Virus record (IMG/VR): IMGVR_UViG_3300025322_000532
Location: 1 to 52,689 of that record
Direction: 5' to 3' (one strand)
Length of the DNA: 52,689 nucleotides
DNA from: a virus
Taxonomy: Duplodnaviria; Caudoviricetes
Part shown: positions 25,572-40,614 of the stretch, piece after piece
Position numbering within the stretch: the first letter of the stretch is position 1
Layout: every line of letters starts with the position of its first letter
The notes under the pieces: model-generated
Told to the model about the DNA's origin: nothing
Database searches by the model: none
What the model saw: the letters and a program-made list of their open reading frames with translations, nothing else
Translations under genes and position numbers: made by a program

Positions 25572-26151
25572 CGAATTCTAGGATCTCCTGGCGATTGGCT
25601 TGGGTGATCTGATTGTAAAGCAGGACCGCGTCCTCGAAGACGATCTGCTCCCGCATCTTTTCCCGGCGCTTGATCTCGGTGTCCACCAGCCGGCGCTTGG
25701 TTTCCTCGGCGTTGCCAATCCGCTCGATCGTCGCCGCGACCGTCGCGGCCTGGCCGAGTAGAGTTCCGATCCGCTGTCGATGGTCGGCGACCGCCTCCTG
25801 ATCGCCGCGGCCAGTCGCGTTCCAGAACTCCCGCCACTCGGCCCGGATGCGGCCAACGAGGCGGGTCGGGGCTTCGCCTTGTTCGAGTGAATCGTACGCG
25901 TCCCGGACAATCGCTTCTTGCCCGGCGATGGACTCGGAGAGATTGAGCAGCTCCGAGTCGTTGAGCGCCTCCCGGAAAGCCGGGGCCAGGAACTTGGGCA
26001 TGTACTTGGAGCGGGAACCGTCCTTAAAGTTGGGATGGGCCGCGCCTTTGAGCGATGCCCCTCCGTGGTGATAACACACTTGGGCGCCCGACATGGCTGG
26101 GCGCTGGCATCGGTTTCCGGTTCTTTTGGACTTCGCTTTACATTGCGGCAT
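25471..26151 (-). CDS. Terminase small subunit-like protein with HGGxSTG-type Zn motif
   Basis: CKAKSKRTGNRC...CYHHGGAS...NFKDG.RSKY; immediately upstream of TerL. Confidence 0.7.
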   Translation of the reverse strand: MPQCKAKSKRTGNRCQRPAMSGAQVCYHHGGASLKGAAHPNFKDGSRSKYMPKFLAPAFREALNDSELLNLSESIAGQEAIVRDAYDSLEQGEAPTRLVGRIRAEWREFWNATGRGDQEAVADHRQRIGTLLGQAATVAATIERIGNAEETKRRLVDTEIKRREKMREQIVFEDAVLLYNQITQANRQEILEFDGLSREDKNRLLNRIVTRFAEIAGLPNPARPAS

Positions 26152-26162
26152 GACAAGAGGAA

Positions 26163-27467
26163 CTAGGCTGACACGAGCTTCGGTTTGAGGCCCATCTGAC
26201 TCAGGCGTTCGAGGGTGACGGCGACATAGGCTGGATTGATTTCAATGCCGCGGCCTTTGCGGCCAAGCTGTTCACAGGCGACAAATGTAGTACCGGAACC
26301 CAGGAAATTGTCGTATACGATGTCGCCCTGATCCGTGTGATTCCAGATCGCGTTGGCGGGAAGTTCGACTGGCTTCATGGTCGAATGCTCCGGGCTGGCC
26401 CGCGGTTTATCGACCGGCCAGACCGAGGCATGGAACGCTCCCGCCTTGCGTCGCTTGTGGGTCTTCTTCCAACCGAACAAGATCGGTTCATGCTGATAAT
26501 CGTAGTCAAGACGGCCGAGCGAAAACGTCGGCGCATTCTTAATCCAAATGAGGACATGGCGAACCGGAAGCCCAGCCTCCATCATCATCATCATCATCAT
26601 CAGGCCGAGCGAGCCACCCTGCGGGGCACAAACGAAGTAAGCGCAGTCGTCGGCCATGACAAGTTCACGGGTGATCTGATAGGCCAAAAGTAGCAGATCA
26701 TGGAGATCTTTTTCATTGAGGGTATCGCCTTCAATGTCCTCTAAACGCCGTCCAGCCTTCTGGACGGCGTTTAGCATGCGATTCTTCTGGCCCACCCCAA
26801 CGCCATAAGGCGGATCACTGAAAATGCAGGTGGCTTTCAAGCCTTCCATGAGTTGCCCAACTATGGCCCGATCCGTGCAATCCCCACAGATCAACCGATG
26901 ATCGCCAATCTGCCAAAGCTGGCCGAGTTCGGTGCCCCATTTCTTTTGAAGCTCTGTGGCGCGGTCAATCTCGGGTTCGGGCGGTTCAGGCCCAAGCAGC
27001 TCTGGCCGATACAGCCGGATCAGCTGGTCTACATCATCCCGGTCGTAGCCAGTTCCATCCAAGTTCCCATTCGAGAGCGAGATCAGCGCATCGACCAGCC
27101 GCGGTTCATCCCAGCCCCCGAGTTCGACCATCCGGTTGTCGGCGATGGTGTAGGCTTTGCCGGCCTGGGCGCCGAGCCGGATACCCATCACGACCGGGGC
27201 CAGCCATTCGCCGTCCTTGACCCGCACACCCTCAGGCGGCGGTTTGCCGTCCGCCTTCAACATCTTGAGCTCATCAAGCCGCCCATGTCCCGCAAGCAGA
27301 CGCCCGTTGCTTTCGTTCAGAACCATAGGCGCGACGTAGCCGAAGCGGTCCATCGACTGCATGAGCGCACCTAAGTCGTGAAGCTTGGCGTTGTCAGGAT
27401 CGGGTTTGATCTTCGAGAGCGGCAGGTACTCGATCCGTAGCTCCCGTTGCTTCTTGGCTTTGGGCAA
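26163..27467 (-). CDS. ParB-N domain fused to N6/N4 DNA methyltransferase
   Basis: PDPDNAKLH...LAGHGR...ADNR (ParB/Srx-like); FSDPPY, HSTMKP, DNFLGSGTT (beta-class MTase). Confidence 0.9.
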   Translation of the reverse strand: MPKAKKQRELRIEYLPLSKIKPDPDNAKLHDLGALMQSMDRFGYVAPMVLNESNGRLLAGHGRLDELKMLKADGKPPPEGVRVKDGEWLAPVVMGIRLGAQAGKAYTIADNRMVELGGWDEPRLVDALISLSNGNLDGTGYDRDDVDQLIRLYRPELLGPEPPEPEIDRATELQKKWGTELGQLWQIGDHRLICGDCTDRAIVGQLMEGLKATCIFSDPPYGVGVGQKNRMLNAVQKAGRRLEDIEGDTLNEKDLHDLLLLAYQITRELVMADDCAYFVCAPQGGSLGLMMMMMMMEAGLPVRHVLIWIKNAPTFSLGRLDYDYQHEPILFGWKKTHKRRKAGAFHASVWPVDKPRASPEHSTMKPVELPANAIWNHTDQGDIVYDNFLGSGTTFVACEQLGRKGRGIEINPAYVAVTLERLSQMGLKPKLVSA

Positions 27468-28044
27468 TTCGATCCCTTACCTCGCCCGCCAGCATGTGGC
27501 AGATGGCTAAGTGGGCATCCTCAACGATCCGTATGTCCTCGGCCTGGACCCGGATCTCCAGCTCGGCGGCCTTGAACTGGAAGTTCCCGAACCAATGCGG
27601 CCGCATTCCGTCCGGGCCGGTGAGGGCGATGGAGCGGCCTTCGAAGCGCTCGGCGTGATAGAGCGCGTTGATGACGTTCTGGGAAGCCCCGGAGCAGGAG
27701 ATCCCCACGACCACATCATGGGGCCGGGCGAGATCAGCGAGTTGCCGGCTGAAGACCTCGGCATACTCGTAATCATTGGCGTACGCGGTGGCGAGCGGGC
27801 CAAGAGTCAGGGCCTGAGCCCGGACACCGCCAGAGCCAGGAACCCGGCTCCACTTGCGGAGGTCGGTCGCGAAGTGCTCGGCGGTAGACCAACTCCCGCC
27901 GTTACCGCAGACGAAGACCGAACGGCCGTTCTGCCAGGCTTCGAACAGAATGTCGGCCGCCTGGCGGATAGTACCGAGGTCCAGGCTGGCGAGGGCGCTT
28001 TGGAGGGCTTCGGGGTAGGCCGAAAGTACCGTTTGGGGCCTCAT
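27394..28044 (-). CDS. gmhA: Sedoheptulose-7-phosphate (phosphoheptose) isomerase, SIS domain
   Basis: VFVCGNGGS..AEHF..DL, TAYANDYEY.EVFSRQL, GISCSGAS.NV, VEDAH..ICH. Confidence 0.88.
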   Translation of the reverse strand: MRPQTVLSAYPEALQSALASLDLGTIRQAADILFEAWQNGRSVFVCGNGGSWSTAEHFATDLRKWSRVPGSGGVRAQALTLGPLATAYANDYEYAEVFSRQLADLARPHDVVVGISCSGASQNVINALYHAERFEGRSIALTGPDGMRPHWFGNFQFKAAELEIRVQAEDIRIVEDAHLAICHMLAGEVRDRIAQSQEATGATDRVPAALEDQTRS

Positions 28045-28059
28045 CGGGTCTCTCCCAGA

Positions 28060-28617
28060 TCATAGCACAGGCCTTCGGTAATCTTTGACGGCTGCCCACA
28101 GATCTTCAGCCTTAATCAAAGCGAGTTGGTCGGCGGTTTTGAGTTCAAACCATTCCCGCGAAAAAAGCAAACGACTGGACCGAAAAATCACACAAAGGCG
28201 CTGTTCCAGATTACGAGCATACTCAACATAATGACTCCCTACGAGTTCCAGATTCCAATTCTGAAATTCCCATTGCAATCGTCTCAACCTTTCCTGCGGT
28301 TTCCCTGTTTTAGTATGACCAATCTTATAGTAATCAGTACCAACCGCATGAATGATGTATAGATAGCCACGGCTAACATCCGCCCTTCGTTGCTCTAGAT
28401 CAGAATCATTCATGGACTCCAATTTACGATTACGACGCGTGCTCTCATGCGCGCGATTGGAGCGTAAGCGACGTCTTGCCTGATAATCGGGATAGCTGTG
28501 AATCAATTGATAGACCCGCTGTCCTGAGACATGAAAAACCTCACCAATCGCCCGCAGGGATAGATCATCTTGAACTGCCATACGGAGCATTTCAAGCCGT
28601 CTCTCTTCCGATTTCAT
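28060..28617 (-). CDS. HTH (sigma70 region 4-like) + GIY-YIG/T5orf172-like nuclease
   Basis: SLRAIGEVFHVSGQRVYQLI HTH; GYLYII...YYKIGHT...ERLRRLQ...LEQRL...REWF. Lower GC than flanks. Confidence 0.8.
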   Translation of the reverse strand: MKSEERRLEMLRMAVQDDLSLRAIGEVFHVSGQRVYQLIHSYPDYQARRRLRSNRAHESTRRNRKLESMNDSDLEQRRADVSRGYLYIIHAVGTDYYKIGHTKTGKPQERLRRLQWEFQNWNLELVGSHYVEYARNLEQRLCVIFRSSRLLFSREWFELKTADQLALIKAEDLWAAVKDYRRPVL

Positions 28618-28623
28618 GCTTAT

Positions 28624-28658
28624 ATAGTACTTGACAAACGAAAAACGTCAAGTATAAT
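28624..28658. promoter_or_regulatory. Overlapping divergent sigma70 promoters within an inverted repeat
   Basis: Plus strand TTGACA(28631)-16-TATAAT(28653); minus strand TTGACG(28651)-16-TACTAT(28629). Arms TACTTGAC/GTCAAGTA with an 11-bp spacer. Confidence 0.85.
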
Positions 28659-28681
28659 TATTTCGTACGAAGGAGCTTCCG

Positions 28682-29068
28682 ATGACCGAACAGACGTTCG
28701 CCCCCGAGCCGCACCAACAGTTGATCGACGGCCTGACCGTAATGGCGCTGAGGGAAGAGATCACGAAGACCGAGGCGCTCGCCATCATCGAACGGATCAG
28801 CGCCCAGCGTCCCGGCGGCTCCGAGGACTTCGCCGAGGCGATTCTGATCGAGATCCGCAAGGATTACGGATTGGATCCTCTGCCATCGAAGACTGAGGAT
28901 CGCTATCAATCCATGTCCAGCCTTGAGCTTGAGGAGCGGCTGGGCGAGATCAATTATGAATTGCGCCCCGTCGTTATCCCCTTCCGTAGCTTCGGCGATT
29001 ACCAGCGCGAACAGAAGCTGGGTCTCGAAACAGGCTACATCGAAGACGAATTGCAGAGGCGGTCATGA
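28682..29068 (+). CDS. Hypothetical protein (first rightward gene)
   Basis: AAGGAG RBS; ATGA overlap with the next gene. Confidence 0.75.
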   Translation: MTEQTFAPEPHQQLIDGLTVMALREEITKTEALAIIERISAQRPGGSEDFAEAILIEIRKDYGLDPLPSKTEDRYQSMSSLELEERLGEINYELRPVVIPFRSFGDYQREQKLGLETGYIEDELQRRS

Positions 29069-30021
29069 TTGATCTAACCAGTCGAGAAATCTGGCTGCAG
29101 GAACGTAAGACCGGAATCGGGGGTTCGGATGCGTCGGTGGTCTTGGGTGTGAATCCCTACAAGACCGTCCGCGAGCTGTGGCTGGAAAAGACCGGTCGCG
29201 TCCAAGACCTCGAGAAAGAGAGCGGGCCAATCCTGCGCGGGCGGGTTTTAGAGCCAGTCGCCGCCGATCAGTACGCCCAAAAGACCGGCCGCAAAATCCG
29301 GCGCCAGCCGATGCGCCGGCATCCCGAACACCAGTTCATGATCGGGAACGTGGACCGGCAGATCTTGGCGGTCAACGGCGTGGTCTCGACTGGCATCCTC
29401 GAAGTCAAGTGTCCGGGCCTGAAGGCGATCGCCAAGGTCAAGGCCCACGGCCTGCCCGATTACATGACCGTCCAGCTCATGCACTATCTGGCGGTCTACG
29501 AATACAGCTGGGGTTCGTTCGCGCTGTTCAATGCCGAGAATTGGGATCTGATTTGGTTTGATCTGGAAGCGGACCCGATTTTGATCGCGACGATGGTTGA
29601 GCGGGAACGGGAGTTCTGGGGGTGGGTCGAGAACGAGGTCGAGCCGCCCGAAACGGCCCGGGCCGAGGCCGTGGACATCCCCAAGATCGAGGGCGAGCTC
29701 ACGATCGTGAGTGACGAAGCTTGGCAGCGGATGGCCTCGGAGTTGCGGGAGGCCAGGGAGTTGAAGCAGGCGGCCGAGGCCTTGGAAGAGACCGCCAAGA
29801 CTCAGATCCAAGAGCGAATGCACCGCGACGAGTTACACGCGGTCGAGGTCGATGGGATCGCCCGGTTCTACTATCGGTACCAGGCCGGGACCACGAAGTG
29901 GAAGGAGACGGCCGAGGCCATTGCCCGGGCCGCCGATTTGAAGACCGAGGATTACTTGGTCAAAGGCGATGGCTTTACCCGATTCACACCCTACTTCTTG
30001 AGAGGATCAACGGAGGACTGA
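29065..30021 (+). CDS. YqaJ/lambda-exonuclease-like viral recombinase exonuclease
   Basis: WLQERKTGIGGSD, LWLEKTG, RGRVLEP, NVDR, ILEVK, QLMHY. Confidence 0.92.
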   Translation: MIDLTSREIWLQERKTGIGGSDASVVLGVNPYKTVRELWLEKTGRVQDLEKESGPILRGRVLEPVAADQYAQKTGRKIRRQPMRRHPEHQFMIGNVDRQILAVNGVVSTGILEVKCPGLKAIAKVKAHGLPDYMTVQLMHYLAVYEYSWGSFALFNAENWDLIWFDLEADPILIATMVEREREFWGWVENEVEPPETARAEAVDIPKIEGELTIVSDEAWQRMASELREARELKQAAEALEETAKTQIQERMHRDELHAVEVDGIARFYYRYQAGTTKWKETAEAIARAADLKTEDYLVKGDGFTRFTPYFLRGSTED

Positions 30022-30022
30022 C

Positions 30023-31135
30023 ATGGGCGCAGTAAAAGAATTAGCAGAACGGACGGGAGAAGGCGCAGCGGAGCAACGTCCGAAGCCGACCTTCACGTTG
30101 GCGATGAAGAACCAACTGGAGGGGGCCCGGGATCAGATCATGGCCGCATTACCGGATCGCATTGACGCGGAACGCTTCATGATGGTGGCGCTGACGGCAA
30201 TCACTCGCAACGACAAGCTACAGGAGTGCGGCCTGCCGAGCGTCTTTTTAGCCGTGATGGAGTGCGCCCGGACGGGCTTGTATCCAGACGGCCAGGAGGC
30301 CGCGATCATCCCGTACAAAGGCGTTGCGGAATTCCAGCCGATGGTGCAGGGCATCACGCGGCTGATGCTGCGCTCGCCCGGTCTGACAAAGGTGGAGGCG
30401 CGGGCAGTCTTCGAAGGCGATGTGTTCCATTTCAACTACGGCCTTCATCCAGATCTGGTGCATGTGCCTCTCGGAACAGACACGGCCGGACGCAAATTGA
30501 CTCATGCCTATGCCATCATGTGGCGACAGGGCGCGGAGCCAACTTTCGAGGTAGTGGATCGGGATGTGGTTGAGGCCGCGCGGTTGACATCAAGAGCTCC
30601 GAACGGACCGGCCTGGGGCAATCCCCTCTGGTACCCGGAGATGGCCCGCAAGGTGGCGCTCAAGCGTCTAGGGAAATACGCCGACCTATCACCGGAGGCG
30701 AGCCGGGCGATCGCCCTGGACAACTTAGTGGTCGGCGGTGGCGAAAAGTGGACGGATTACGAGCCAGAGGGCGTGTCGCCAGAATACCGTAATCAGCTAG
30801 TGCGAAGTCAGACCGAGGCCGGGATCGCCCGGCTCAAGGATAAGATGGCTGGGGCTGACGGGCCTGCGCCTGCGCTGGCTGAACCCGAAGTGATCGAACG
30901 GCACGCGGTTAAATCTTGGCCGCCCGCGTACGTCAACGAGCTGGTGACTCAGGGCCTGGCCGATAACCCGGACCACGCCCTGAACGTTCTCATCATGTCG
31001 CCGTTCGAGACTAAGGAACCGCTCCAGAACGTCGTGCGCTGGGCGAAGATCTACCGGGCGCGGCGGGAAGAAGGCTTAGAGACGGACGTAGCCGCCGAGG
31101 TCGCGACCCAAGAATACCGGACATCCACGAAATGA
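30023..31135 (+). CDS. recT: RecT-family single-strand annealing protein
   Basis: Paired with YqaJ. ERFM..ALT, CARTGLYPD..EAAIIPY, AVFEGDVF...YG, EMARKVALKRLGKY. Confidence 0.9.
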   Translation: MGAVKELAERTGEGAAEQRPKPTFTLAMKNQLEGARDQIMAALPDRIDAERFMMVALTAITRNDKLQECGLPSVFLAVMECARTGLYPDGQEAAIIPYKGVAEFQPMVQGITRLMLRSPGLTKVEARAVFEGDVFHFNYGLHPDLVHVPLGTDTAGRKLTHAYAIMWRQGAEPTFEVVDRDVVEAARLTSRAPNGPAWGNPLWYPEMARKVALKRLGKYADLSPEASRAIALDNLVVGGGEKWTDYEPEGVSPEYRNQLVRSQTEAGIARLKDKMAGADGPAPALAEPEVIERHAVKSWPPAYVNELVTQGLADNPDHALNVLIMSPFETKEPLQNVVRWAKIYRARREEGLETDVAAEVATQEYRTSTK

Positions 31136-31395
31136 CTGCGCCAGTCCTGAAGGTAGTAAGAGCGAAAGAAATCCTGGCCGATCCGTTCAAGGATCATGAA
31201 ACCCTCACAGATCGAGAACGGGAGATTGCCCGCCTGACCGCCCGTGGCCTGTCGGTCAAGAAGGTGGCCGCCGAACTCGGGATCGCCCCGTCTACGGTCT
31301 CAGCCTTGCTGGGCCGAGTGAGCCTGCGGCTGGGCCTGGATCGAGGGGGGATGACACAGAAGATGATTGAGCGGCTAGAGGAGGCATTGAAATGA
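31132..31395 (+). CDS. LuxR-type HTH protein
   Basis: LTDREREIARLTARGLSVKKVAAELGIAPSTV. Confidence 0.85.
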   Translation: MTAPVLKVVRAKEILADPFKDHETLTDREREIARLTARGLSVKKVAAELGIAPSTVSALLGRVSLRLGLDRGGMTQKMIERLEEALK

Positions 31396-31535
31396 GACGG
31401 ATAACTATGAACTCGATTACGGCAGTTACGGCGGTCATCGCTATAGTGTTGATCGCAAAGGGTTCGGAGGTCCCTATTTGGGCCTCTGCTCTCGCCGGTA
31501 GCCTATTTGTTTTCGCTTGGATATTCAAGCCGTAG
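31392..31535 (+). CDS. Small two-TM membrane protein (47 aa)
   Basis: ATGA overlap, GGAGG RBS; MRRITMNSITAVTAVIAIVLIAKGSEVPIWASALAGSLFVFAWIFKP. Confidence 0.55.
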   Translation: MRRITMNSITAVTAVIAIVLIAKGSEVPIWASALAGSLFVFAWIFKP

Positions 31536-31612
31536 GGGATTCCAGGCCGATCCGACCGTGACCCCGCACAAGGCAATCTCGTGCTCCCCCGCGGCAGATC
31601 GGCCTGTTTCCC
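31536..31612 (+). other. Long intergenic stem-loop
   Basis: CAGGCCGATC (31543-52) pairs with GATCGGCCTG (31597-606), with inner CCGTG/CGCGG and GCAC/GTGC helices. Confidence 0.6.
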
Positions 31613-31629
31613 AATAATGAGGAACCGAC

Positions 31630-31914
31630 ATGCCATTTCCAAATTATGAGGGCATACCAGAACACATGCGAAGTGGAGCGAAGCTATATATTGACCGTGG
31701 GCTTCCTCCAGGATCTTTTCTGAGGGCAGTCCTAGAGAACGATCTAACTGGCGCGGCGGGACGCGCCGATGACATCAACGTGGCGCGTCTTCTCGATTGG
31801 GTGATGTGGCTACATTCGGATATTCCAGGCGAAGCCTGGGGCAGTCCCGAGAAGGTGAATGCGTGGATTGTACGAGGCGGGATGGCAGATGATCGCAAGG
31901 GCATCAATGCCTAG
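31630..31914 (+). CDS. Hypothetical phage protein
   Basis: GAGG RBS; YIDRGLPPGSFLRAVLENDL...AWGSPEKV. Confidence 0.75.
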   Translation: MPFPNYEGIPEHMRSGAKLYIDRGLPPGSFLRAVLENDLTGAAGRADDINVARLLDWVMWLHSDIPGEAWGSPEKVNAWIVRGGMADDRKGINA

Positions 31915-32043
31915 TCATGATATGATGCCCTCGGCATCGGGTCCCTTAGCGGCCCGTGTCCACAAGATCGCTCGATTCATCCCCCGCCCCTCGGTGCCGG
32001 AAGCTCCTACGGGTAAACAGACACGGGGGATGAGTCGCGTCTG

Positions 32044-32355
32044 ATGACCGAATACACCTATACGTCGCTGGTGGGCTATACCCAGCACGTCCTCTCCGGC
32101 AAAGCCACCAGCCAGAACAATCGGATCTTGACCTGCCTGTTCGAGTCCGCGGTCCCGCTCTGCCGGCGCCAGATCATGAAACTCACGGGCATCGAGATCA
32201 ACGCAGTATGCGGGCGGGTGAACACGCTGATCAAGTCTGAGCTCCTGCGGGTCGCCTATGAAGCGGTCGATCCCGCGACGGGTCGGCTCGCGCAGTTCAT
32301 CGAACCGACCTGGCCGCAGCTCAAGCAGAAATCATTCGAGGAGTTCCTACGATGA
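32044..32355 (+). CDS. Winged-HTH-like DNA-binding protein
   Basis: RRQIMKLTGIEINAVCGRVNTLIKSELL. Confidence 0.65.
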   Translation: MTEYTYTSLVGYTQHVLSGKATSQNNRILTCLFESAVPLCRRQIMKLTGIEINAVCGRVNTLIKSELLRVAYEAVDPATGRLAQFIEPTWPQLKQKSFEEFLR

Positions 32356-32672
32356 GCAAACTAAACCTAGCCGACAGGATTCACCGCGCAGTCGCTGGCT
32401 ATGAGGAAGGGGCGTGGGTTCCCGAGAGCTATGCCACAGTTGAGCATATCCAACTTCTGAGCGAGGCTAGGGATGCTTTGAGAAGTCTGGAGGCAATGGA
32501 GCGGTCCATTCGTGAATTCGTTTATCAAAACGAAACCGTGAGGTGGCACATCATTGAGCCTCCGATCGGGAAGGGCGAATCGTCCCTTGATGAGGCCTAC
32601 AAGGACATGAAAGCCAGCTTGCCGGCAGCGGAGGAGGAGCCTGATGCCCTACGATCTGATGCCACCGAATGA
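32352..32672 (+). CDS. Hypothetical protein
   Basis: ATGA coupling and GAGGAG RBS. Confidence 0.6.
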   Translation: MSKLNLADRIHRAVAGYEEGAWVPESYATVEHIQLLSEARDALRSLEAMERSIREFVYQNETVRWHIIEPPIGKGESSLDEAYKDMKASLPAAEEEPDALRSDATE

Positions 32673-32829
32673 AACGCCACTGCCCATCGGCTTATACAGC
32701 GTCTTGTCCGTCACGGACCTGAGGATCAAACAGGATGGCAAGCCCTGGCGGACGGTGAGGGCGATGGCCTGGCGGCCGGAGGAGCTGGCGGAGTTCTTGC
32801 GGCAGATGTTGGGTCAGCGACAGAAGTAG
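32644..32829 (+). CDS. Hypothetical protein
   Basis: GGAGGAG RBS before ATG. Confidence 0.5.
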   Translation: MPYDLMPPNETPLPIGLYSVLSVTDLRIKQDGKPWRTVRAMAWRPEELAEFLRQMLGQRQK

Positions 32830-32852
32830 GCCGAAGCCGTGGCGATTGACGG

Positions 32853-32881
32853 TTGACAGGATGCGAGGCTAGACTTATCAT
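32853..32881 (+). promoter_or_regulatory. sigma70-like promoter
   Basis: TTGACA-17 bp-TATCAT; overlapping TTGACG-18-TAGACT at 32846-32875. Confidence 0.7.
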
Positions 32882-32887
32882 GTGTTT

Positions 32888-33270
32888 GTGCCTGGGAAGC
32901 ATGGAATTGGCGTTCATCGTCCAGCGGGGTCTGCGGGAGAAGTTGTGGCTTCCCAGGCCTCCGCAAACCCCCTGGACAATGAGCGCCAGTCGTTTAACGG
33001 CGGGTGCTGCGTTGCCGCCTTACCAAACGCGCATCCACATAGCGCCCTCATACGCGGGACAGCCTCGGAACCCTTCCGCATCGGCGCACAAAAGTCCAGA
33101 TGCTCAGACCGTCCGCGCCCTGAGGGGTGCTTCAGCTCAGGGTAAAGCGCGACCTGGACCGTCCTCGCCGATCTTGGCTGAGGTGGCTGAAGCATGATGT
33201 GGGCCATCCACTGTAACGTCCGATGGCGCCTGAAACCCCGACCCTTGAGGCTGGGGATCATCGCGCCTGA
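32888..33270 (+). ncRNA. Candidate large structured RNA with two pseudoknots, upstream of the HNH gene
   Basis: Long hairpin 32908-32988 whose loop GCTTCCCAGGC pairs with 5' GCCTGGGAAGC. Nested helices 33080-33172 with loop TGCTTCAG pairing CTGAAGCA (33187-94). Further small hairpins follow. Confidence 0.55.
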
Positions 33271-33289
33271 AATCGGAAGGAAAGTGAAT

Positions 33290-33700
33290 GTGACCTACGT
33301 CAAGCCAAAGAAGGCACCTTCCAATCCGATGATTCTCCCCGACGTTCCAGGAACCTCTTCGCGGTGCCGAGCAATAACAGCAAGCGGAAGACAGTGCAAG
33401 GGGTGGGTTCGTTTCGGTGGCTTCTGTCATATTCATGATCCGCAAGGAACGTATCAGAACAGCGGCAAGACGAAACGGACTTTGCCAGTCATTTACAGGG
33501 ATTACCTCCGCTCCGAACATTGGCTGACGTTTCGTAGCAAAGCACTTGAGCATTACGGTTATCGGTGTGCGAACTGTCAAGCTAAACGAGAGGACGTAAC
33601 GCTAGATGTGCATCATCTAACCTACGAAACTCTTTGGCATGAGACAGTCGATGATGTTCTGGTGGTTTGTCGGAAATGCCACATAGAGCTGACCGCTTGA
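33290..33700 (+). CDS. Compact Zn-finger + HNH endonuclease (~136 aa)
   Basis: CRAITASGRQC...FCHIH finger; YLRSEHW...RCANC...VHHLTY...LVVCRKCH. GTG 33290 has an AAGGA RBS (ORF track start is 33194). Confidence 0.85.
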   Translation: MTYVKPKKAPSNPMILPDVPGTSSRCRAITASGRQCKGWVRFGGFCHIHDPQGTYQNSGKTKRTLPVIYRDYLRSEHWLTFRSKALEHYGYRCANCQAKREDVTLDVHHLTYETLWHETVDDVLVVCRKCHIELTA

Positions 33701-33742
33701 GCGAAGCCTCGTGGCTCCGACAGGTGAAGATAGTCGCGCCTA

Positions 33743-34099
33743 ATGATCGACCATCAGTCAGAACGAGTATTAGGGCAAACGAACCCCGATCCGCTAAGCG
33801 AGGTCCTAGGCACAGGATATAGCAGGTTTCAATCGCCTACTGGGATTGATGGCTTGGCGAAAGAGGAAAAGGATCGGCTTGATCTACTGGCATTCAACGC
33901 GCTGGTTCCGGGCATCGGTCAGTTTCGGAGATTCATTCAGCGATGTAAACGGGAGTACGAAACGATCTGCATCTGGGAGATCTGGAATCCGATGCTTCAT
34001 GAAGTCCTGCAGCGGTATGGCTTTCGGGCCTACTCGGAAAAGGATCGTGATACAGGAGAACTGCTTGAAGGGTATCGCTATGATGCCGGGAGCAGGTGA
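33743..34099 (+). CDS. Hypothetical protein
   Basis: 118-aa ORF in the operon direction. Confidence 0.6.
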   Translation: MIDHQSERVLGQTNPDPLSEVLGTGYSRFQSPTGIDGLAKEEKDRLDLLAFNALVPGIGQFRRFIQRCKREYETICIWEIWNPMLHEVLQRYGFRAYSEKDRDTGELLEGYRYDAGSR

Positions 34100-34124
34100 G
34101 CCAGATAGTCGGCGGGAGGATGGG

Positions 34125-34454
34125 ATGAGCGAGACAATGAGCCAAGTGGACATTTTCCGCGCCACAGCACTGAAGGCGGAGGAGGATGCCAGGGTGATGC
34201 AGGGTTTCCCCGGATCGGAATATCCAGCCCGCGTCGCTCGGATCGGCCTACGGGCCATTGATGAACTCGAATCCGAACTCGCCCGGGCCAGAGCCAACGT
34301 AGAGGTGCTGGAACGAGACGCCCGCAGGTATCAATGGCTGCGCGCGGGTAATGCTTATGCTCCCGAAGAGAACATGGTCCGTGGGGACGATGAGTTGGAC
34401 CGTTTGTGTGACGATGCTATCAGCAGCCTTGCTGGAAGAGCAACAGATGAGTGA
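34125..34454 (+). CDS. Hypothetical phage protein
   Basis: GGAGGA RBS; DARRYQWLR motif common in small phage ORFs. Confidence 0.65.
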   Translation: MSETMSQVDIFRATALKAEEDARVMQGFPGSEYPARVARIGLRAIDELESELARARANVEVLERDARRYQWLRAGNAYAPEENMVRGDDELDRLCDDAISSLAGRATDE

Positions 34455-34752
34455 CCTTGGCATACGACCTATGACGGTGAGCGAACGCCTTGCCATGCGC
34501 TTGGAGGGTTCGCCTGATCCAGACAAGGACGATGGTTATGCCATGTATCCCAACTGGCAGCTCCGCATGGAAATTGCTGATGCCAAAGCCCTCGAATCCG
34601 AACTCGCCCTGCTCCGAAGGGCGGTTGCGCAGTTAGGCCATGCTTGGCATGATGCGAGGAAGAAGGAGCCGCATCTAGAGATGTATTCTTTCGACTTCTA
34701 TAGCATCGATCCCGACGTATTGGATCTCATCAAGGAACCCGAACCCAAGTGA
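34447..34752 (+). CDS. Hypothetical protein
   Basis: Overlaps both neighbours; shares LESELA with the previous ORF. Confidence 0.55.
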   Translation: MSDLGIRPMTVSERLAMRLEGSPDPDKDDGYAMYPNWQLRMEIADAKALESELALLRRAVAQLGHAWHDARKKEPHLEMYSFDFYSIDPDVLDLIKEPEPK

Positions 34753-34991
34753 CCCAGCCCATCTCCGAGAGGCCTTCCCCGATTCAAACCCAGAAGTGCA
34801 AAGCCTGTGCCGCGCCGATCTTCTTTGTCAAGACTGCCGCGACCGGGAAATTCATGCCGCTCGACGCGCGCCCCGAGCGCCGCATCTGGCTCGACAAAGC
34901 CGGCAAGGCGCATTCGGTGTCTGTGTTCGTTCCGCATCACAGCACTTGTTCCGATGCAGATCAGTTCCGAAAGAAGGCAACCGCCCAATGA
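34749..34991 (+). CDS. Small Zn-binding phage protein
   Basis: CKACAAPIFFVKT..GKFMPLDA...HHSTC.DADQF; GTGA coupling. Confidence 0.7.
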   Translation: MTQPISERPSPIQTQKCKACAAPIFFVKTAATGKFMPLDARPERRIWLDKAGKAHSVSVFVPHHSTCSDADQFRKKATAQ

Positions 34992-35449
34992 CCCGCTACG
35001 CCGCCCAGACCACCGTCTCTGAGGACCGATCCCGGTCCGAGATTGAGCGGATCCTCAAGCGCTACGGCGCCACAGGCTTCATGTACGGCTGGACCGGAAG
35101 CGATGCTCTTCTTGGTTTTGTGGCCCATACCCGACAGATCAAGATCGTGCTCGCGCTCCCAAGCCTGGAAGATGTCAGCAAGACTCCGAGTGGACGCAAG
35201 CGTTACTCTGCCGCGGCTCGACTTCGAGCGCATGGATTCGCCACCCGGCAGAAATGGCGAGCGCTGGCCCTGGTCATCAAGGCCAAGCTGGAAGCGATCG
35301 AGAGCGGGATCAGCACCTTTGATGAGGAGTTCTTAGCCTGGACGCTACTCCCAACTGGACAGACCGTGGGCCAGACATTCATCCCTCAGATTGACGACGC
35401 ATACAAGACTGGGAGGATGCCTCCCCTCCTGACAGGCGGCCATGACTGA
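34988..35449 (+). CDS. Hypothetical phage protein
   Basis: ATGA coupling; YAAQTTVS..RSRSEIERILKRYGA...WRALALVIKAKLEA. Confidence 0.8.
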   Translation: MTRYAAQTTVSEDRSRSEIERILKRYGATGFMYGWTGSDALLGFVAHTRQIKIVLALPSLEDVSKTPSGRKRYSAAARLRAHGFATRQKWRALALVIKAKLEAIESGISTFDEEFLAWTLLPTGQTVGQTFIPQIDDAYKTGRMPPLLTGGHD

Positions 35450-35702
35450 GAACGCTGGCACAAAGAAGTGGCGAGCGATGAGCATCCGCACCCAGCCGCG
35501 CCAGTTCGCGTACACCTACACCGGCCCCGTCCAGCCGCATGTGGCCGAGTGGATTCGGGTGAACGCCGAGTACGTCGCGGCAGGCGCCGGCAAGGATCGG
35601 GATCGGCCGCTGTGCATGGGAGGGTTGATCGACGGCAAGCTGTGCCGGCATCTGGCGAGGCTGGGCCGGACGAACTGCAGCAGAAAGCATGACGAAAGAT
35701 GA
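35442..35702 (+). CDS. Hypothetical protein
   Basis: Overlaps the previous stop. Confidence 0.45.
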   Translation: MTENAGTKKWRAMSIRTQPRQFAYTYTGPVQPHVAEWIRVNAEYVAAGAGKDRDRPLCMGGLIDGKLCRHLARLGRTNCSRKHDER

Positions 35703-35831
35703 TGGGCGGCGAGGGGTTCGTGGCACGCGGTAACGATCAGGCGGACGCTCAGATGCGTGCAATCGAAAGCTACCCTGATGGCCCTCGGCCCGCCCAACTG
35801 ACGCAACACCGGGCACAGGAGGCCCAATAGG

Positions 35832-36185
35832 ATGAGCGAGAACAGTGAGGTACAAGAGGAAACTTGGGAGGGCAACTATCGGACACTCTCTCGTCTCTTA
35901 GACGAGAAGAACGAGCGGCTCACCGCCCTCGAACACAAGTTGGATGTAACAGAACAGGAAGCTATCGCGTTTCGGGATCTACTGCAGGAGGCCAGAGCCA
36001 AGCTGGAGGCGGTCGAACAAGAGTACATGGAACTGTTGTATTCGGTCGTGACAAAGCACGAGGGTGAGACACGACACCAGACGGCGCTTCGTTACATCCG
36101 TGAGCGTGAGCATCACACAACTGAAGCGGTTGCCGCCCAAGAGGAGCCGAGCGGCCCCGGCCCGGCCTACGTCGATCAGGAATGA
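35832..36185 (+). CDS. Hypothetical coiled-coil phage protein
   Basis: AGGAGG upstream; YMELLYSV..KHEGETRHQTALRYI. Confidence 0.7.
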   Translation: MSENSEVQEETWEGNYRTLSRLLDEKNERLTALEHKLDVTEQEAIAFRDLLQEARAKLEAVEQEYMELLYSVVTKHEGETRHQTALRYIREREHHTTEAVAAQEEPSGPGPAYVDQE

Positions 36186-36255
36186 CCCCCCTCATCCTGC
36201 TGGTGATGTGGCTGACTGGGCGTTTGCCCCTATGTGCTGGACCGGAGGAGGAAGC

Positions 36256-36624
36256 ATGACCACAAGCTACTATCGTTTGAAAAGCCCGATCACGCATCTC
36301 AAAGTTGAGGAAACACCAACGCATGTCCGCGTGAGCATCTTTGTCAATCACGCCCACGCGGGTGTGCTTACAGTCAGGCAGGAAGAAAAGAAAGATCTCT
36401 ACCGTCTTTTCGAGCTGTACGAAGAGGATGATCAATGTCCGTTACGAAGCTGGTGGGGAGGCGCCGATCAGGGTTCCATTATTCAAGTCAATGATCCTAC
36501 ACTGCCCGACGAGACAGTTGTGTTCTCGGAATATGGCGAGCTACTGACGGTCGGTCAAGTGAAAGCCCGTCACGGCGCAAAACGCGCAGATGGATACCCC
36601 ACTGAGCTATTTGGCTATAAGTAA
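36256..36624 (+). CDS. Hypothetical protein
   Basis: GGAGGAGG RBS before ATG 36256. Confidence 0.65.
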   Translation: MTTSYYRLKSPITHLKVEETPTHVRVSIFVNHAHAGVLTVRQEEKKDLYRLFELYEEDDQCPLRSWWGGADQGSIIQVNDPTLPDETVVFSEYGELLTVGQVKARHGAKRADGYPTELFGYK

Positions 36625-36687
36625 CTTGCTGGACCTATTGATGGCTGATCAGACAATTTCTTGGGTTCACTGCGAAGGCCACAGCCT

Positions 36688-38058
36688 ATGAACCCTTCCG
36701 CGCTGATCGCCCAGGCTGATTGCTTCCGCATCCCACTTCCCGACAAGAGCGTGCACTGCTGCGTGACGAGTCCTCCCTATTGGGGCCTCCGCAAGTATTC
36801 TGGCAATCAAGGCGATGAGCCGCTGGGCCTGGAGCCGACCCCTGAGCGCCACATCGAGCGCACCGTGCAGTGGGCGCGGGAGGTCTATCGAGTGCTGCGG
36901 GACGATGGCGTATTTTTCTGCAATTACGGCGATTGTTACGCCGGCAGCGGGGGCGAAAATAACAACGGCGGCTTGGGCTCCACTCTGACCGGGACAGCAC
37001 GTCCCATCACGGACGATGGTTCCCGAAGCGGATTATGGCGGCGCAACCCTAGGCAAGAGTGCATCGCCCAAGGCAACCTCATGCTCATGCCCCACCGTGT
37101 CGCCCTCGCCCTACAAGCCGATGGCTGGATCGTGCGCCAGGACCTCGTGTGGAGCAAACCCAACCCGATGCCGGAGAGTGTGGCAGGTTGGCGGTGGCAG
37201 AAATCTGCTCAGCTCGATCCTACTATTTACTGGGGCATCCCGACGAATGTCCCCGCCGATCTTCCAGACGGTGGTTCAGTCCAACACCTCCGCCGAGGCT
37301 CGTTCAGGCACACTCGCAGCCACGAGTATGTTTTTATGCTGACCAAGCAGATGCAGTATTTTGCGGACGGTGAGGCTGTCAAAGAGAGGCTTGCGCTACC
37401 CGATGCCGCCGACAGTTCTCGCACGTTCGGTGGTAGCTCCAAGCACGGAGCCAATCTACAGCACGGAAAACGAACTACCGGGCGCGCCTACGACGTAGCT
37501 CCCACTGGCCGCAACCCCCGCTCCGTCCTCCACATCCCGACCGCGCCTTATCGCGGGGCGCACTACGCCACCTTTCCGCCTGCTCTGATTGCGCCCCTGA
37601 TCCTCGCTACCTGCCCCCGCTGGTGCTGCCCGGTGTGCGGGCAGGGATGGGCGCCGGTGGTTGAGAACCATTGGAAAGATGACGGTCGCAAACATGATGA
37701 TGGATATGCTATCGCAAAGCGGATGGGCTATCTCAGGCTGGAGTGCGATGACAACGATGGTTTCGCCACCAGGGTCCCGCCCGGTACAGTAAACGCGGAT
37801 ATTACTGTTCTCGGCCACCGCCCCACCTGCAACCATTCGCATACGCAGGCCGAGGCCGTGCCTGGCATCGTCTGCGACCCATTTGTGGGGTCGGGAACGA
37901 CGGTCATGGTGGCGAAGCAGCTCCTGCGGCGGGGCATCGGCTTTGATCTCAGCCTAGAATATCTTGACCAGCAGGCTTCGCTAAGGACGGGCGCAAGTTC
38001 CCGGAGCGGTCAGCTCGACAATCTGCCATTATTCGCCCGCGATGAAACCGAACCCTAA
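36688..38058 (+). CDS. Site-specific DNA methyltransferase (N4-C/N6-A, beta class) with Zn-ribbon insert
   Basis: CVTSPPYWGLR, WSKPNPMPES, HYATFP, CPVCG...C insert, DPFVGSGTT. Confidence 0.92.
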   Translation: MNPSALIAQADCFRIPLPDKSVHCCVTSPPYWGLRKYSGNQGDEPLGLEPTPERHIERTVQWAREVYRVLRDDGVFFCNYGDCYAGSGGENNNGGLGSTLTGTARPITDDGSRSGLWRRNPRQECIAQGNLMLMPHRVALALQADGWIVRQDLVWSKPNPMPESVAGWRWQKSAQLDPTIYWGIPTNVPADLPDGGSVQHLRRGSFRHTRSHEYVFMLTKQMQYFADGEAVKERLALPDAADSSRTFGGSSKHGANLQHGKRTTGRAYDVAPTGRNPRSVLHIPTAPYRGAHYATFPPALIAPLILATCPRWCCPVCGQGWAPVVENHWKDDGRKHDDGYAIAKRMGYLRLECDDNDGFATRVPPGTVNADITVLGHRPTCNHSHTQAEAVPGIVCDPFVGSGTTVMVAKQLLRRGIGFDLSLEYLDQQASLRTGASSRSGQLDNLPLFARDETEP

Positions 38059-38761
38059 GCCCACGCCCGCCCAAGCCGCGGTGCTCATGGAACTCGCGCG
38101 GGGAAGCGAGGTCTATTTCCAGCGCAGCGAATGGCGGACGATCGGGCCCAGATGGGTAAACGGCCGCGCCAAGTCTCGAGCCGGCACCATCCGGGCAGCC
38201 ACCTGGCGGGCGCTGATCGGTCTGGACTATGTGCAGCTCCAAGACCCGACCGGCTCCAAGTGGACGCTCACCGAAGCCGGGCTGCAGGCCGCGGGCGGAA
38301 TCAATCCCGAGGATCTGATCCGAGAACCGAAAGGGATGACCTCCCATGACGTGCTCAAATCTCTGCGGAAGCTATGGCCTTCGATGCCGATGAGTATTGA
38401 GGTGGCGGTCGGACCCACCGGAAACCCCTCCTATGCCGATGCCGTCTTCCTCATGGGCAGCGAGGGGATGACAGCCGTAGAAGTGAAAGTAAACCGCGGC
38501 GATTGGCTGGCCGAGCTCAAGGATCCGATGAAGCGGGCACCCATTGTCGCGATCTCGGCCCGGTTCTACTTTGCCACCCCAGCCGGAATGACGCTGCCCT
38601 CGGAACTTCCGGAAGGTTGCGGGCTGATCGAAGTTGAGCCGCGCACTCTCAAGGCTTCAGTCACGACCGGCGCAGCCCTGCGCTATCCATCGAAACCGGA
38701 TTGGCTATTAATGATGCGGATAGGGAGCGGGATGGAGCGAGCGGCGAGCCTTGGTTTATAG
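38042..38761 (+). CDS. MmcB-like PD-(D/E)xK nuclease with N-terminal wHTH-like region
   Basis: EV...ADAV...AVEVKVNRGDWLAELKDP.K...RFYFATP...ELPEGCGLIEV. Confidence 0.75.
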   Translation: MKPNPKPTPAQAAVLMELARGSEVYFQRSEWRTIGPRWVNGRAKSRAGTIRAATWRALIGLDYVQLQDPTGSKWTLTEAGLQAAGGINPEDLIREPKGMTSHDVLKSLRKLWPSMPMSIEVAVGPTGNPSYADAVFLMGSEGMTAVEVKVNRGDWLAELKDPMKRAPIVAISARFYFATPAGMTLPSELPEGCGLIEVEPRTLKASVTTGAALRYPSKPDWLLMMRIGSGMERAASLGL

Positions 38762-38782
38762 CAACATCTATCTCGAACACAT

Positions 38783-38887
38783 GGCCGGATATGGCGTGGC
38801 AAGGTAGGGCATAATGGGGCCTGGCAAGGCGAGATCCGGCGAGGCCAGGCATGGCTGGGCGCGGCGAGGCGAGGCTTGGCAAGGCAT
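38783..38887. repeat. Degenerate GGCNN pentanucleotide array (21 units in strict 5-bp phase)
   Basis: GGCCG GATAT GGCGT GGCAA GGTAG GGCAT AATGG GGCCT GGCAA GGCGA GATCC GGCGA GGCCA GGCAT GGCTG GGCGC GGCGA GGCGA GGCTT GGCAA GGCAT, then TTTTAATT. Confidence 0.85.
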
Positions 38888-38896
38888 TTTTAATTC

Positions 38897-38924
38897 TTGC
38901 GCCCCAATCCGTACCGTTTATAAT
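38897..38924 (+). promoter_or_regulatory. sigma70-like promoter
   Basis: TTGCGC-16 bp-TATAAT immediately after the GGCNN array. Confidence 0.55.
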
Positions 38925-38953
38925 GGAGCTAATTGGGCAGTTTTAGCCTGGTC

Positions 38954-39211
38954 ATGCCAAAACGGGCAGTACGAGACCTTTCCGCTCTGATCGAACACCT
39001 GGAGAACGAGCGGCTCGAAAAGAGCTGGACCGCGCTGGCGAAGGAATACGGCCTCTATCCGGCGATCTTGTGGCGCATCGTGAACGAGAGTTATGAACCC
39101 AGACGGGCCGACATCCGCAAGAAACTCGGGCTTCCCCAAGTCATTCGGGTTCCGATACAACGAGGAAAGAACGGTCGCTTCGAACCCATTGAGCAGAGTG
39201 AGCAAACATGA
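38954..39211 (+). CDS. Putative HTH protein (Cro/Xre-like)
   Basis: SWTALAKEYGLYPAILWRIVN...P....RKKLGL. Confidence 0.6.
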   Translation: MPKRAVRDLSALIEHLENERLEKSWTALAKEYGLYPAILWRIVNESYEPRRADIRKKLGLPQVIRVPIQRGKNGRFEPIEQSEQT

Positions 39212-39516
39212 CCCGCAATCAGAAACTCGGAGTAGGGCTTGGCGTGATCGCGACCGGAGCGCTGATCGGCTCCGTGGTCTTTGCCCAACCCAACCTGCCG
39301 CTGACGTTGATCTGGACGACTGATTGCCCTGGACTGAGCCTAGCTCTAGCCGAGGTTCATGTCAGTGCGGACATCGTTCAGTGTTGGCTCATCGACATGA
39401 CGGCGACGCCGACGAATACGCCCAGGCCACGGCCCACCTTTACACCCAGACCTACTCTGACGCCTCGCGCTCCGCCGACATTGACCCCGCGACCCTCGCC
39501 CGGTCCTCCTGATTAA
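39208..39516 (+). CDS. Membrane-anchored/secreted protein with Pro/Thr-rich tail
   Basis: N-terminal TM/signal; TATPTNTPRPRPTFTPRPTLTPR. Confidence 0.65.
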   Translation: MTRNQKLGVGLGVIATGALIGSVVFAQPNLPLTLIWTTDCPGLSLALAEVHVSADIVQCWLIDMTATPTNTPRPRPTFTPRPTLTPRAPPTLTPRPSPGPPD

Positions 39517-39531
39517 TTGGAAAGGATCAAC

Positions 39532-39750
39532 ATGACCGACTTCATAGAAGTTCAGCCAGCGACCGAAAAGGGTAATACTGAACCGCGGATCCTTCTGAAT
39601 ACCGCCACCATCGTTTCTGTACGGCCTAAGACGGGTACGGGTGGCTACGGCCATTCGGTCATCATCGCAATTGACGAAAGCCCGATGCCCGTCTGGGAGC
39701 CGTATGAACATTTGGCCTCACAGCTCCTGAAAGGAAGAGATGATGACTGA
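39532..39750 (+). CDS. Hypothetical protein
   Basis: AAGGA RBS; 72 aa. Confidence 0.6.
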   Translation: MTDFIEVQPATEKGNTEPRILLNTATIVSVRPKTGTGGYGHSVIIAIDESPMPVWEPYEHLASQLLKGRDDD

Positions 39751-40432
39751 CCAGACGAAATTCGGCCTCGGCCGCCGCCATGCCCCCGACCCGCGGGATA
39801 ACGCGTTCATGATCCGGGAGATCGCGGCCCCGGTGAAGGCCGCGGTCCCGGTCCGCAAGACCCGTTACTGGAACGCGTCGGGCTGGTGGGGGGATCAGGA
39901 CGGCACCAATCAATGTGTCGGCTATGCCTGGAACCACTACATCGAAGACGGGCCCATCACGCACAAGCCGAAGGGCGCGAAGACCCCGCCGCTCTATGAC
40001 CCGGCCTATCTGTACGCGCAGGCCCAGCTCGTGGACGAATGGGAGGGCGAGGCCTATGAAGGGACTTCCGTCCGGGCCGGTGCCAAGGTGCTCAAGACCC
40101 TCGGCCTGATCTCCGAGTACCGCTGGACCTGGGACGTGAACGACGTGATCGACGCCCTGCTCTATATCGGGCCGGTCGTGGTCGGGACCAATTGGTATCG
40201 CAGCATGTTCGAGCCCGATGAGAATGGCGTGCTCGGGATTGCGGGTCTGATCGACGGCGGCCACGCCTATGTGCTCAACGGGATCAGCCAGCCTAAGAAC
40301 CTGATCCGGATCAAGAACTCGTGGAGCCGGGGCTGGGGAAAGAATGGCTTCGCCTACATCATGCCCCATGATCTACAGCGATTGCTCAATGAGCAAGGTG
40401 AGTGTTGCCTTGCGACGGAGGTAGCGACATGA
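39740..40432 (+). CDS. Papain-like (C1) cysteine peptidase
   Basis: DQDGTNQCVGYA (Gln/Cys), GGHAYVLNG (His), IKNSWSRGWGKNG (Asn). Confidence 0.9.
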   Translation: MMTDQTKFGLGRRHAPDPRDNAFMIREIAAPVKAAVPVRKTRYWNASGWWGDQDGTNQCVGYAWNHYIEDGPITHKPKGAKTPPLYDPAYLYAQAQLVDEWEGEAYEGTSVRAGAKVLKTLGLISEYRWTWDVNDVIDALLYIGPVVVGTNWYRSMFEPDENGVLGIAGLIDGGHAYVLNGISQPKNLIRIKNSWSRGWGKNGFAYIMPHDLQRLLNEQGECCLATEVAT

Positions 40433-40554: not shown

Positions 40555-40557
40555 ACC

Positions 40558-40589: not shown

Positions 40590-40614
40590 TCCCAGAGGAG
40601 GAGGAAGACCGCGC

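Follow-up and report, generated by a model that had tools for sequence, protein, structure and literature searches.

The window analysed here is the whole of IMG/VR virus record IMGVR_UViG_3300025322_000532 (Duplodnaviria; Caudoviricetes), a linear stretch of 52,689 bp with 59% G+C and an estimated completeness of 59%. The minus strand encodes the functions for structure, packaging and lysis, among them terminase, tape measure, minor tail protein and endolysin, and a rightward block at 28682-40432 encodes a YqaJ-type exonuclease, RecT, a LuxR-type helix-turn-helix (HTH) protein, two DNA methyltransferases and many small open reading frames (ORFs). Within this block, after a gene for a 61-amino-acid (aa) protein, a promoter is followed by a foldable region and by a gene for a small HNH endonuclease. 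A preliminary description had read the region as one ~380-nucleotide (nt) double-pseudoknot RNA that forms a candidate RNA-nuclease system with the HNH protein. The features that it listed (promoter, long hairpin, both loop-flank complements and a repeat) are all present where it had placed them, and a structured non-coding element remains the best description of the region. What had been lumped together, however, reads on comparison with related DNA as two separable modules, which we call D1 (32845-32997) and D2-D3 (32998-33289). Together, these represent a real and apparently undescribed family of structured RNAs, of which approximately ten sequence variants were seen, in uncultivated phages of soil and groundwater. 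The features of the locus are as follows; related loci (L numbers) and metagenome sequencing runs (X numbers) are introduced below.

32832-32843, plus strand: left boundary motif (CGAAGCC..GTGGC), immediately 3' of the 61-aa gene's stop codon.
32853-32881, plus strand: sigma-70-type promoter, TTGACA-17-TATCAT, matching the consensus at 11/12 positions, with a predicted start near 32888.
32890-32900, plus strand: 5' tail element a of D1, the exact complement of 32948-58, in a pairing that covaries in five divergent homologues.
32908-32988, plus strand: long bulged hairpin of D1, with arms at 32908-36 and 32959-88 and an apical loop at 32937-58.
32948-32958, plus strand: loop element a', complementary to a and directly adjoining the 3' hairpin arm.
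32993-32997, plus strand: short U-run at the 3' end of conserved D1; similarity to L012/L013 stops at 32997.
32998-33079, plus strand: variable linker, folding z = 0.05 (computed on 32996-33082).
33080-33172, plus strand: D2 hairpin region, in which the helices are present and the apical hairpin is 33118-33142, with its loop element at 33128-33135.
33186-33194, plus strand: 3' partner of the D2 loop, overlapping ATG 33194 and lying just 3' of GAGGTG at 33180-85.
33209-33286, plus strand: D3 hairpin, z = -2.2, which pairs part of the HNH Shine-Dalgarno (SD) sequence and GTG 33284.
33290-33700, plus strand: gene for the 136-aa HNH endonuclease, the N-terminal segment of which is Cys-rich (DUF5763-like).
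33702-33715, plus strand: right boundary motif, directly after the HNH stop; in L012/L013 it lies behind a different gene, within 33691-33743, which is 98% identical.

Three long ORFs overlap across the region on both strands, and none of the ORFs there matched a Pfam or PHROG family. In the 114-aa plus-strand ORF, G+C at codon positions 1, 2 and 3 is flat (0.59/0.62/0.61), compared with approximately 0.6/0.45/0.75 in the real genes of the phage. Between the window and its close relative L013, all three differences inside the ORF frame change the residue. Promoter and D1 together differ at four of 138 nt (32853-32990; 2.9%), as against 13 of 129 nt (10%), many of them synonymous, in the adjacent 61-aa gene. 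More divergent homologous DNA is known as gene-caller translations (P0006-P0009, P0010 from the minus strand, P0011, P0012, P0014, P0016 and P0017-P0021), all of which begin at the ATG inside the -10 box. Their frames diverge towards the 3' end: P0008 stays in frame 0 to 33281, P0011 passes to frame 1 near 33240 and P0012 to frame 2 near 33185; in the window, TGA codons interrupt the frame at 33195 and 33246. Residue replacements among the homologues are radical, in chains rich in Pro, Arg, Ala and Ser. The suspicion that ORFs across the region are spurious was thus borne out by the flat codon-position G+C, the missing family matches and the changing frames, and we conclude that the region encodes no conserved protein and is non-coding.

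D1 carries the best-defined structure. Its promoter at 32853 (11/12) and the site at 28631 (12/12) are the two best plus-strand sigma-70-type sites in 25000-44000. The promoter is kept in L013 with one change in the spacer, and a variant from run X12 retains a -10-like hexamer at an unchanged distance from GTGCC. The hairpin at 32908-32988 is the minimum-energy fold (z = -4.6; 0 of 200 shuffles as stable), with the helices named in the preliminary description, and the gapped pattern formed by tail and loop matched the window once and 0 of 100 shuffled sequences. At approximately -50 kcal/mol, this hairpin is followed by GUCGUUUAA in the window and by GUCUUUUAA in L013, with a run of only 3-4 U across the two; in nine aligned homologue rows (alignment A5), the position of the U-run is a Leu or Phe codon, that is, a U-rich triplet. 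We infer that the U-run may serve as a terminator.

Compensatory changes preserve the D1 stem and the two loop-flank pairings. Divergent homologues were back-translated into degenerate codons, and for D1 a codon alignment of P0008, P0011, P0012, P0014 and P0016 (49 codon columns) was searched for helices with no unpairable cell in any sequence; P0013 (2345 aa, 20 repeated stretches) and P0015 (a tandem-repeat protein) were excluded as low-complexity matches. The two longest compatible helices were the hairpin stem (14 columns) and the tail-loop helix (10 columns). Where letters were fixed, the stem showed the pair types CG/UA and CG/GC/UA and the tail-loop helix AU/UA and AU/GC, and one tail-loop position carries three different Watson-Crick pairs when the C-G of the window is counted. 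In 1000 shuffles of codon columns, the probability of a longest helix of at least 14 columns was 0.001 and that of a second helix of at least 10 columns was 0.005; one helix of 10 or more columns that contained two or more covarying pairs arose with P = 0.004, and two such helices in 0 of 1000. In P0008, the tail-loop pairing has several unpairable positions in the codon register of the window and lies 3-6 nt beyond it.

The second loop-flank pairing behaved similarly. The D2 loop TGCTTCAGC (33128-36) is complementary to GCTGAAGCA (33186-94) over 9 nt at 100%. Both sequences differ from the window in P0008, P0011 and P0012, and in all three the best of 17 slid registers was 0 or +1, with no unpairable cell; P0011 has four fixed double changes in the register of the window. 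Close variants point the same way for D1: stem positions 32982-83 read AG, GG or GA opposite UU, so that U-A or U.G pairs are kept that can form in plus-strand RNA only; in microvariant P0020, an A of the loop element is replaced by G, which still pairs as U.G; and in an X12 variant the tail-loop helix is shortened at one end and extended by two pairs at the other. The covariation check proposed in the preliminary description thus came out in favour of both loop-flank pairings, and of the D1 stem, as judged from back-translated homologues.

D1 also behaves as a unit at the level of genome organization. L012/L013 retain 32701-32997 (94%) and 33691-33743 (98%), and between these lies an unrelated 632-bp sequence with a different spacer, a 103-aa Cys-rich ORF and no HNH gene; record 6 of run X12 has the same joint, from 32997 to 33691. 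In P0006, P0009 and P0016, D1 is joined to other sequences again. On the left, the likeness of L003, X12 record 3 and X15 record 11 to the window stops at 32838-32844. L003, which is 93% identical in a nearby protein, lacks 32838-34080 and has other genes there. Run data are DNA contigs, and for X13, X15 and X16 the covered parts of the stretch were interpreted. D1 can therefore be described, from these joints, as a discrete mosaic unit. It is followed by no fewer than four mutually unrelated sequences, and the one in L013 is without HNH. This speaks against the proposed RNA-nuclease system, since D1 and its promoter occur without the HNH gene in L012/L013 and precede other sequences in P0006, P0009 and P0016.

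The motif at the edges of the cassette (CGAAGCC, 0-2 nt, GTGGC, then ..GACAGG; 12-14 nt) occurs exactly twice in the window (chance 0.06; 1 of 100 shuffles reached two) and may be a site of cassette exchange. The alternative occupants of the slot have features of their own. In L013, the spacer after D1 (4146-4290) is structured (z = -2.5), opens with a 9-bp G+C-rich hairpin and partly resembles the sequence 3' of D1 in P0006 and P0016; a 35-codon ORF with a good SD sequence lies at ~4364-4471. In L003, the cassette position (4659-5348) encodes a 229-aa protein with an HTH_36 domain (E = 8e-8), possibly a replication or regulatory protein. Elsewhere in L003 (3937-4329), the homologue of the 61-aa gene has a 104-aa gene inserted into its 3' end, and its final ~36 nt, with the stop and the start of the boundary motif, recur after the insert.

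D2-D3 follows the HNH gene more closely. In the divergent P0008, P0011 and P0012/P0017, D2-D3 and HNH-side sequence are kept together with D1, and HNH-homologous DNA, translated out of frame, makes up the tail of P0017 as far as ~33596. D2-D3 is therefore best taken as the leader of the HNH cassette, which by this comparison travels with HNH-like DNA in a second, divergent lineage. As to co-occurrence with HNH, D1 is independent of it and D2-D3 adjoins HNH-like DNA in both lineages; a functional link between D2-D3 and the nuclease is possible. In the close relative represented by P0010, all nine residue changes map to the linker (33004-33081), leaving D1 and D2-D3 unchanged, and run X13 shows one difference per 151 nt in D2/D3 vs six per 151 nt in HNH. 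The D2 stem has 3 of 51 cells unpairable in P0008, P0011 and P0012 (9-22 in slid controls), and the D3 stem 9 of 70 (14-31 in slid controls). D3 pairs G33275-A33277 and G33279 of the SD sequence at 33275-80. The repeat GCGCCTGAAA is present twice. Both complementary pairs, tail-loop and D2 loop-flank, are 58 bp apart from start to start.

In four metagenome runs from different studies (X12, X13, X15 and X16), the sole contigs that match 33025-33287 are short (151-263 nt) and identical or nearly so to the window, and in three of the runs they start within 10 nt of each other (33025-33034). This pattern could reflect low coverage, library bias or an element boundary.

The HNH gene itself encodes an ordinary small phage HNH protein. 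Because its homologues P0002 (68%) and P0003 (59%) start near KKAP, the start is GTG 33290 or 33284 (136-138 residues) and not ATG 33194. The protein matches PHROG HNH families (E = 2e-8), its match to Pfam HNH PF01844 (E = 0.076) lies below the cut-off, and no solved relative was found by sequence. The beta-beta-alpha-metal motif with paired CxxC is represented by C93, C96, H108, H109, C127, C130 and H131, which are invariant in alignment A7. The protein has no RuvC, nor, at 136 aa, room for such a domain, so the earlier statement that it is not IscB stands. At 48-53% G+C, against 59% in the window, the HNH gene and the next ORF (33290-34099) suggest a recently acquired insert; that 118-aa ORF has no family match, and no terminator was found after the HNH gene. 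Traits of moron-type cargo are present, namely its own promoter, a cassette swapped in L013 and absent in L003, and deviant G+C.

The geometry of D1 constrains how its pairings could be used. The order is a, 5' arm, a', 3' arm, with 7 nt between a and the 5' arm and 0 nt between a' and the 3' arm. Since the 7-nt linker would have to span an 11-bp helix and a hairpin of ~25-29 bp, the tail-loop helix and the full hairpin exclude each other in one molecule, and, going by A-form dimensions, this should hold for a pseudoknot as well. A D1 of the window type would therefore use the two pairings as alternative folds in cis or form the tail-loop helix between molecules. Folding of the growing transcript points to an ordered path: an a:a' hairpin is the minimum-energy fold at 71 to ~83 nt (-29.8 kcal/mol), and from ~95 nt the long hairpin wins (-55.7 vs -34.9 kcal/mol with a:a' forced). 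The two are exclusive in nested folding, so that an earlier competing fold is present, as attenuators require.

Our preferred reading, to which we assign a probability of roughly 0.5, is that the element is a non-coding structured leader RNA of two modules, in which D1 is a read-through switch and D2-D3 the leader of the HNH gene. Transcription would start at the 32853 promoter and yield a D1 RNA of ~105-110 nt, in which an unpaired 5' tail precedes the bulged hairpin of 81 nt and the short U-run. The a:a' hairpin would form first and delay or prevent formation of the hairpin and U-run that act as terminator or pause; if the tail were occupied by any factor, the long hairpin would form instead. 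D1 would thus be a promoter-proximal attenuator that gates whichever cargo gene lies downstream. The finished short RNA would expose both tail and loop and could base-pair in trans with transcripts still being made from its own promoter, thereby feeding back on read-through. Further downstream, the D2 loop-flank helix would cover the region of ATG 33194, beside GAGGTG, and D3 would bury part of the HNH ribosome-binding site and the first GTG, so that translation of the nuclease might be held low.

Several observations weigh against this reading. The U-run is short (UUU in the window, UUUU in L013), and a simple terminator scan did not list it, the stem and loop of D1 exceeding the limits of that scan. 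Over 403 nt, folding is no weaker on the minus strand than on the plus strand (z = -4.44 and -2.98, respectively), so energy alone does not tell the strand. For the nested D2 stem, the segments named in the preliminary description are complementary, but their stability is no better than chance (z = -0.77; 38 of 200 shuffles as stable), and what supports the D2 and D3 stems is conservation alone, without any fixed double change. Back-translation does not fix the third codon positions of the homologues, and the codon-column shuffles do not preserve relatedness among sequences. An unbiased scan of single degenerate sequences, itself noisy, placed neither pairing in its top 14 windows, and in microvariant P0021 a U-to-G change opposite A breaks one tail-loop pair. 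No RNA run was among the sequencing runs that matched the stretch. Finally, the ATG frame is open through D1-D2 in all homologues, as a small protein gene would show.

The last point leads to the reading in which a small protein of ~100 aa is made from ATG 32880 and the RNA structure is incidental. The ATG frame is open in every homologue found (89-229 aa), the indels among them within D1-D2 are all multiples of three, and GAGG lies 10 nt upstream of the ATG. Both the open frame and the triplet indels partly reflect a protein search that could find only in-frame ORFs. With GC2 of 0.62 and GC3 of 0.61, three of three L013 differences non-synonymous, radical replacements in a Pro/Arg/Ala/Ser-rich chain, a C-terminal third that runs in three frames in three homologues, in-frame stops in the window, no family match and a complementary covariation not expected of a protein, we regard this as highly improbable. 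A role at the DNA level, as operator half-sites, a single-strand initiation or origin structure, or recombination sites for cassette exchange, would account for inverted repeats that are strand-symmetric and fold as well on the minus strand, for the common 58-bp spacing and for the mosaic junction with its repeated boundary motif on the flanks, and no replication initiator was recognised in the window. It is nevertheless improbable, because substitutions keep G.U-type pairs that are valid only in plus-strand RNA, tail-to-loop spacing varies among homologues (58 nt vs ~77-83), which is poor for phased protein sites, and a consensus promoter travels with the element. The earlier suggestion of a replication primer RNA found nothing in its favour.

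Other readings keep the RNA and change its task. Phage intergenic processing hairpins resemble D1, a bulged ~25-29-bp duplex that is intergenic in a rightward operon; the long hairpins might accordingly be RNase III sites or 5' stabilisers of a polycistronic phage mRNA, with loop-flank complementarity only tuning the folding. We consider this rather unlikely, since it leaves unexplained both the tail-loop covariation and a promoter and hairpin that move as one sharp-edged module. D1 RNAs might instead pair tail-to-loop between molecules, forming dimers, rings or chains with a role other than attenuation, such as sequestration or scaffolding. The tail-loop helix covaries even though window-type geometry (7-nt linker, 0-nt junction) forbids its formation in cis beside the hairpin, the hairpin fold leaves tail and loop both single-stranded, the duplex energy is -22.2 kcal/mol, and covarying 'tertiary' pairs of the ROOL and GOLLD phage RNAs proved intermolecular. 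Still, alternative cis folds account for the same covariation, the P0008-type linker of ~27 columns might permit cis pairing, and the small size (~110 nt) and position of D1 between promoter and cargo genes fit a regulatory leader, which makes such assembly unlikely. The RNA, or at least D2-D3, might also be a guide, scaffold or activator partner of the zinc-ribbon HNH protein in a ribonucleoprotein that helps the cassette to spread. D2-D3 adjoins HNH-like DNA in two divergent lineages, the X13 differences are fewer there than in the HNH ORF, all P0010 changes avoid it, and the Cys-rich N terminus of the nuclease has no assigned role. This is quite improbable given that D1 is found without HNH, that the 136-aa protein belongs to ordinary phage HNH families and has no RuvC or other domain, that neither HEARO nor any other Rfam family matched, and that further sites in the phage complementary to the loop were not beyond chance (28 with at most two mismatches vs 23.8 expected); a leader that travels with its gene is simpler. 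A combined version, which we hold to be doubtful, would make the D1 tail-loop helix intermolecular, as a self-antisense gate of a swappable cargo slot or in head-to-tail RNA-only oligomers, and, linked to this, D2-D3 a working HNH partner and not a mere mask.

The leader reading has precedents in known systems. The immunity RNAs P4 CI and P1/P7 C4 are each encoded in the sense strand of their own leader. Alternative leader folds also underlie the antisense-RNA-driven attenuation of plasmids pT181 and pIP501, in which a terminator hairpin can form once an early segment is sequestered; the antisense RNA of these plasmids is transcribed from the opposite strand, whereas D1 would use the sense RNA itself. 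In P4, the CI leader RNA pairs with seqA (upstream) and seqC (downstream), which leads to premature termination (PMC4825925). D1 resembles P4 CI in having a promoter-proximal untranslated leader with a stable stem-loop that exposes a sequence complementary to a neighbouring segment of the same transcript. A leader stem-loop complementary to its own flank, which characterizes the C4/P4 CI type, is present here as exact 11-nt and 9-nt complements, and the analogy of a loop that pairs with its own leader, drawn in the preliminary description, fits the anatomy of D1. Unlike P4 CI and P1 C4, each hairpin has one partner here (the 5' tail in D1, the 3' flank in D2), and the genes downstream are variable cargo and not replication genes. 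Membership of the C4/P4 CI family by homology was rejected, with no sequence or Rfam match.

In the Gifsy-1 prophage, the IsrK promoter produces both a short RNA that is terminated and an mRNA that results from read-through, the former acting in trans on the latter. The same logic of short form on long form is proposed for D1; IsrK, however, activates translation of the long form, whereas D1, which has no homology to it and is known from sequence alone, would control read-through. ROOL and GOLLD are likewise phage-encoded RNAs of unknown function with covarying loop pairings that proved intermolecular; they measure 500-800 nt or more and form cages, as against ~110 nt and no Rfam match for D1. 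For D3, the closest parallel is the T4 I-TevI type, in which RNA hairpins mask the ribosome-binding sites of phage homing-endonuclease genes. D3 likewise pairs part of the SD sequence and the first GTG of a free-standing HNH gene, in a leader that, unlike that type, is ~290 nt long and has an additional covarying loop-flank pairing. The element would thus build on a known regulatory principle, with an unusual tail-to-loop design, and it moves as a module.

The following searches brought no further relatives. With 4227 Rfam families, cmscan gave no match at gathering score in the window and, for 32700-33800 at E <=10, four junk hits of 15-16 bits, which agrees with the earlier view of an undescribed structured element. 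HEARO/IscB omega RNA, in which a structured RNA also adjoins an HNH-containing gene, was rejected, there being no Rfam hit, a 136-aa protein without RuvC and a best-supported RNA part that occurs without HNH. Self-cleaving pseudoknot ribozymes (HDV-like, pistol, hatchet, twister) were set aside for want of an Rfam hit and of an a'-3' arm junction to carry a catalytic residue. A group I intron with HNH was set aside because there was no Rfam hit and the 61-aa gene upstream ends at a stop kept in L003 and L013. A retron msr-msd was likewise set aside, no reverse transcriptase being adjacent and no RVT_1 match being found in the record, itself an estimated 59% complete. The tail/loop DNA pattern recovered five stretches in viral contigs, none homologous: four lie in apparently coding DNA and the fifth (L015) is unrelated. 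L015 has, at ~2400-2590 on the minus strand of that locus, a TTGACA-17-TATCTT promoter, a long hairpin and a clean hairpin and T-run terminator, and this unit is likely a small-RNA gene unrelated to D1. An extended 25-base pattern matched three Ktedonobacter loci in genome contigs (L019-L021), which represent one orthologous coding gene in three species and hence one chance match. Among cultured phages, blastn found nothing similar to 32600-33800, and tblastn of the terminase, P0016 and P0017 against phages found no relatives. Scans of viral contigs with the 106-aa neighbour, the 114-aa ORF, P0008 and alignment A6, and of genome contigs with the 114-aa ORF, also found none. Elsewhere in the record, no tRNA, tmRNA or integrase was found, and a 12/12 sigma-70 promoter (TTGACA-16-TATAAT) at 28631-28658, facing a 9/12 site on the other strand, lies at the divergent junction that heads the rightward block.

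The sequencing-run search places this DNA in soil, sediment and groundwater metagenomes, and phages that infect uncultivated bacteria of soil and groundwater have so far yielded few regulatory RNAs. Gene calls of 105-229 aa over the element in several metagenomes are most likely not proteins, and such spurious ORF translations in protein databases can be used to test RNA covariation where the DNA itself is out of reach. The locus presents a compact promoter and RNA module that recombines as a unit ahead of interchangeable cargo genes. If D1 is a read-through gate, and especially if its short RNA acts on its own transcripts, the P4 CI/IsrK principle would extend beyond enterobacterial prophages, and these phages would carry a portable, sequence-programmable expression gate.

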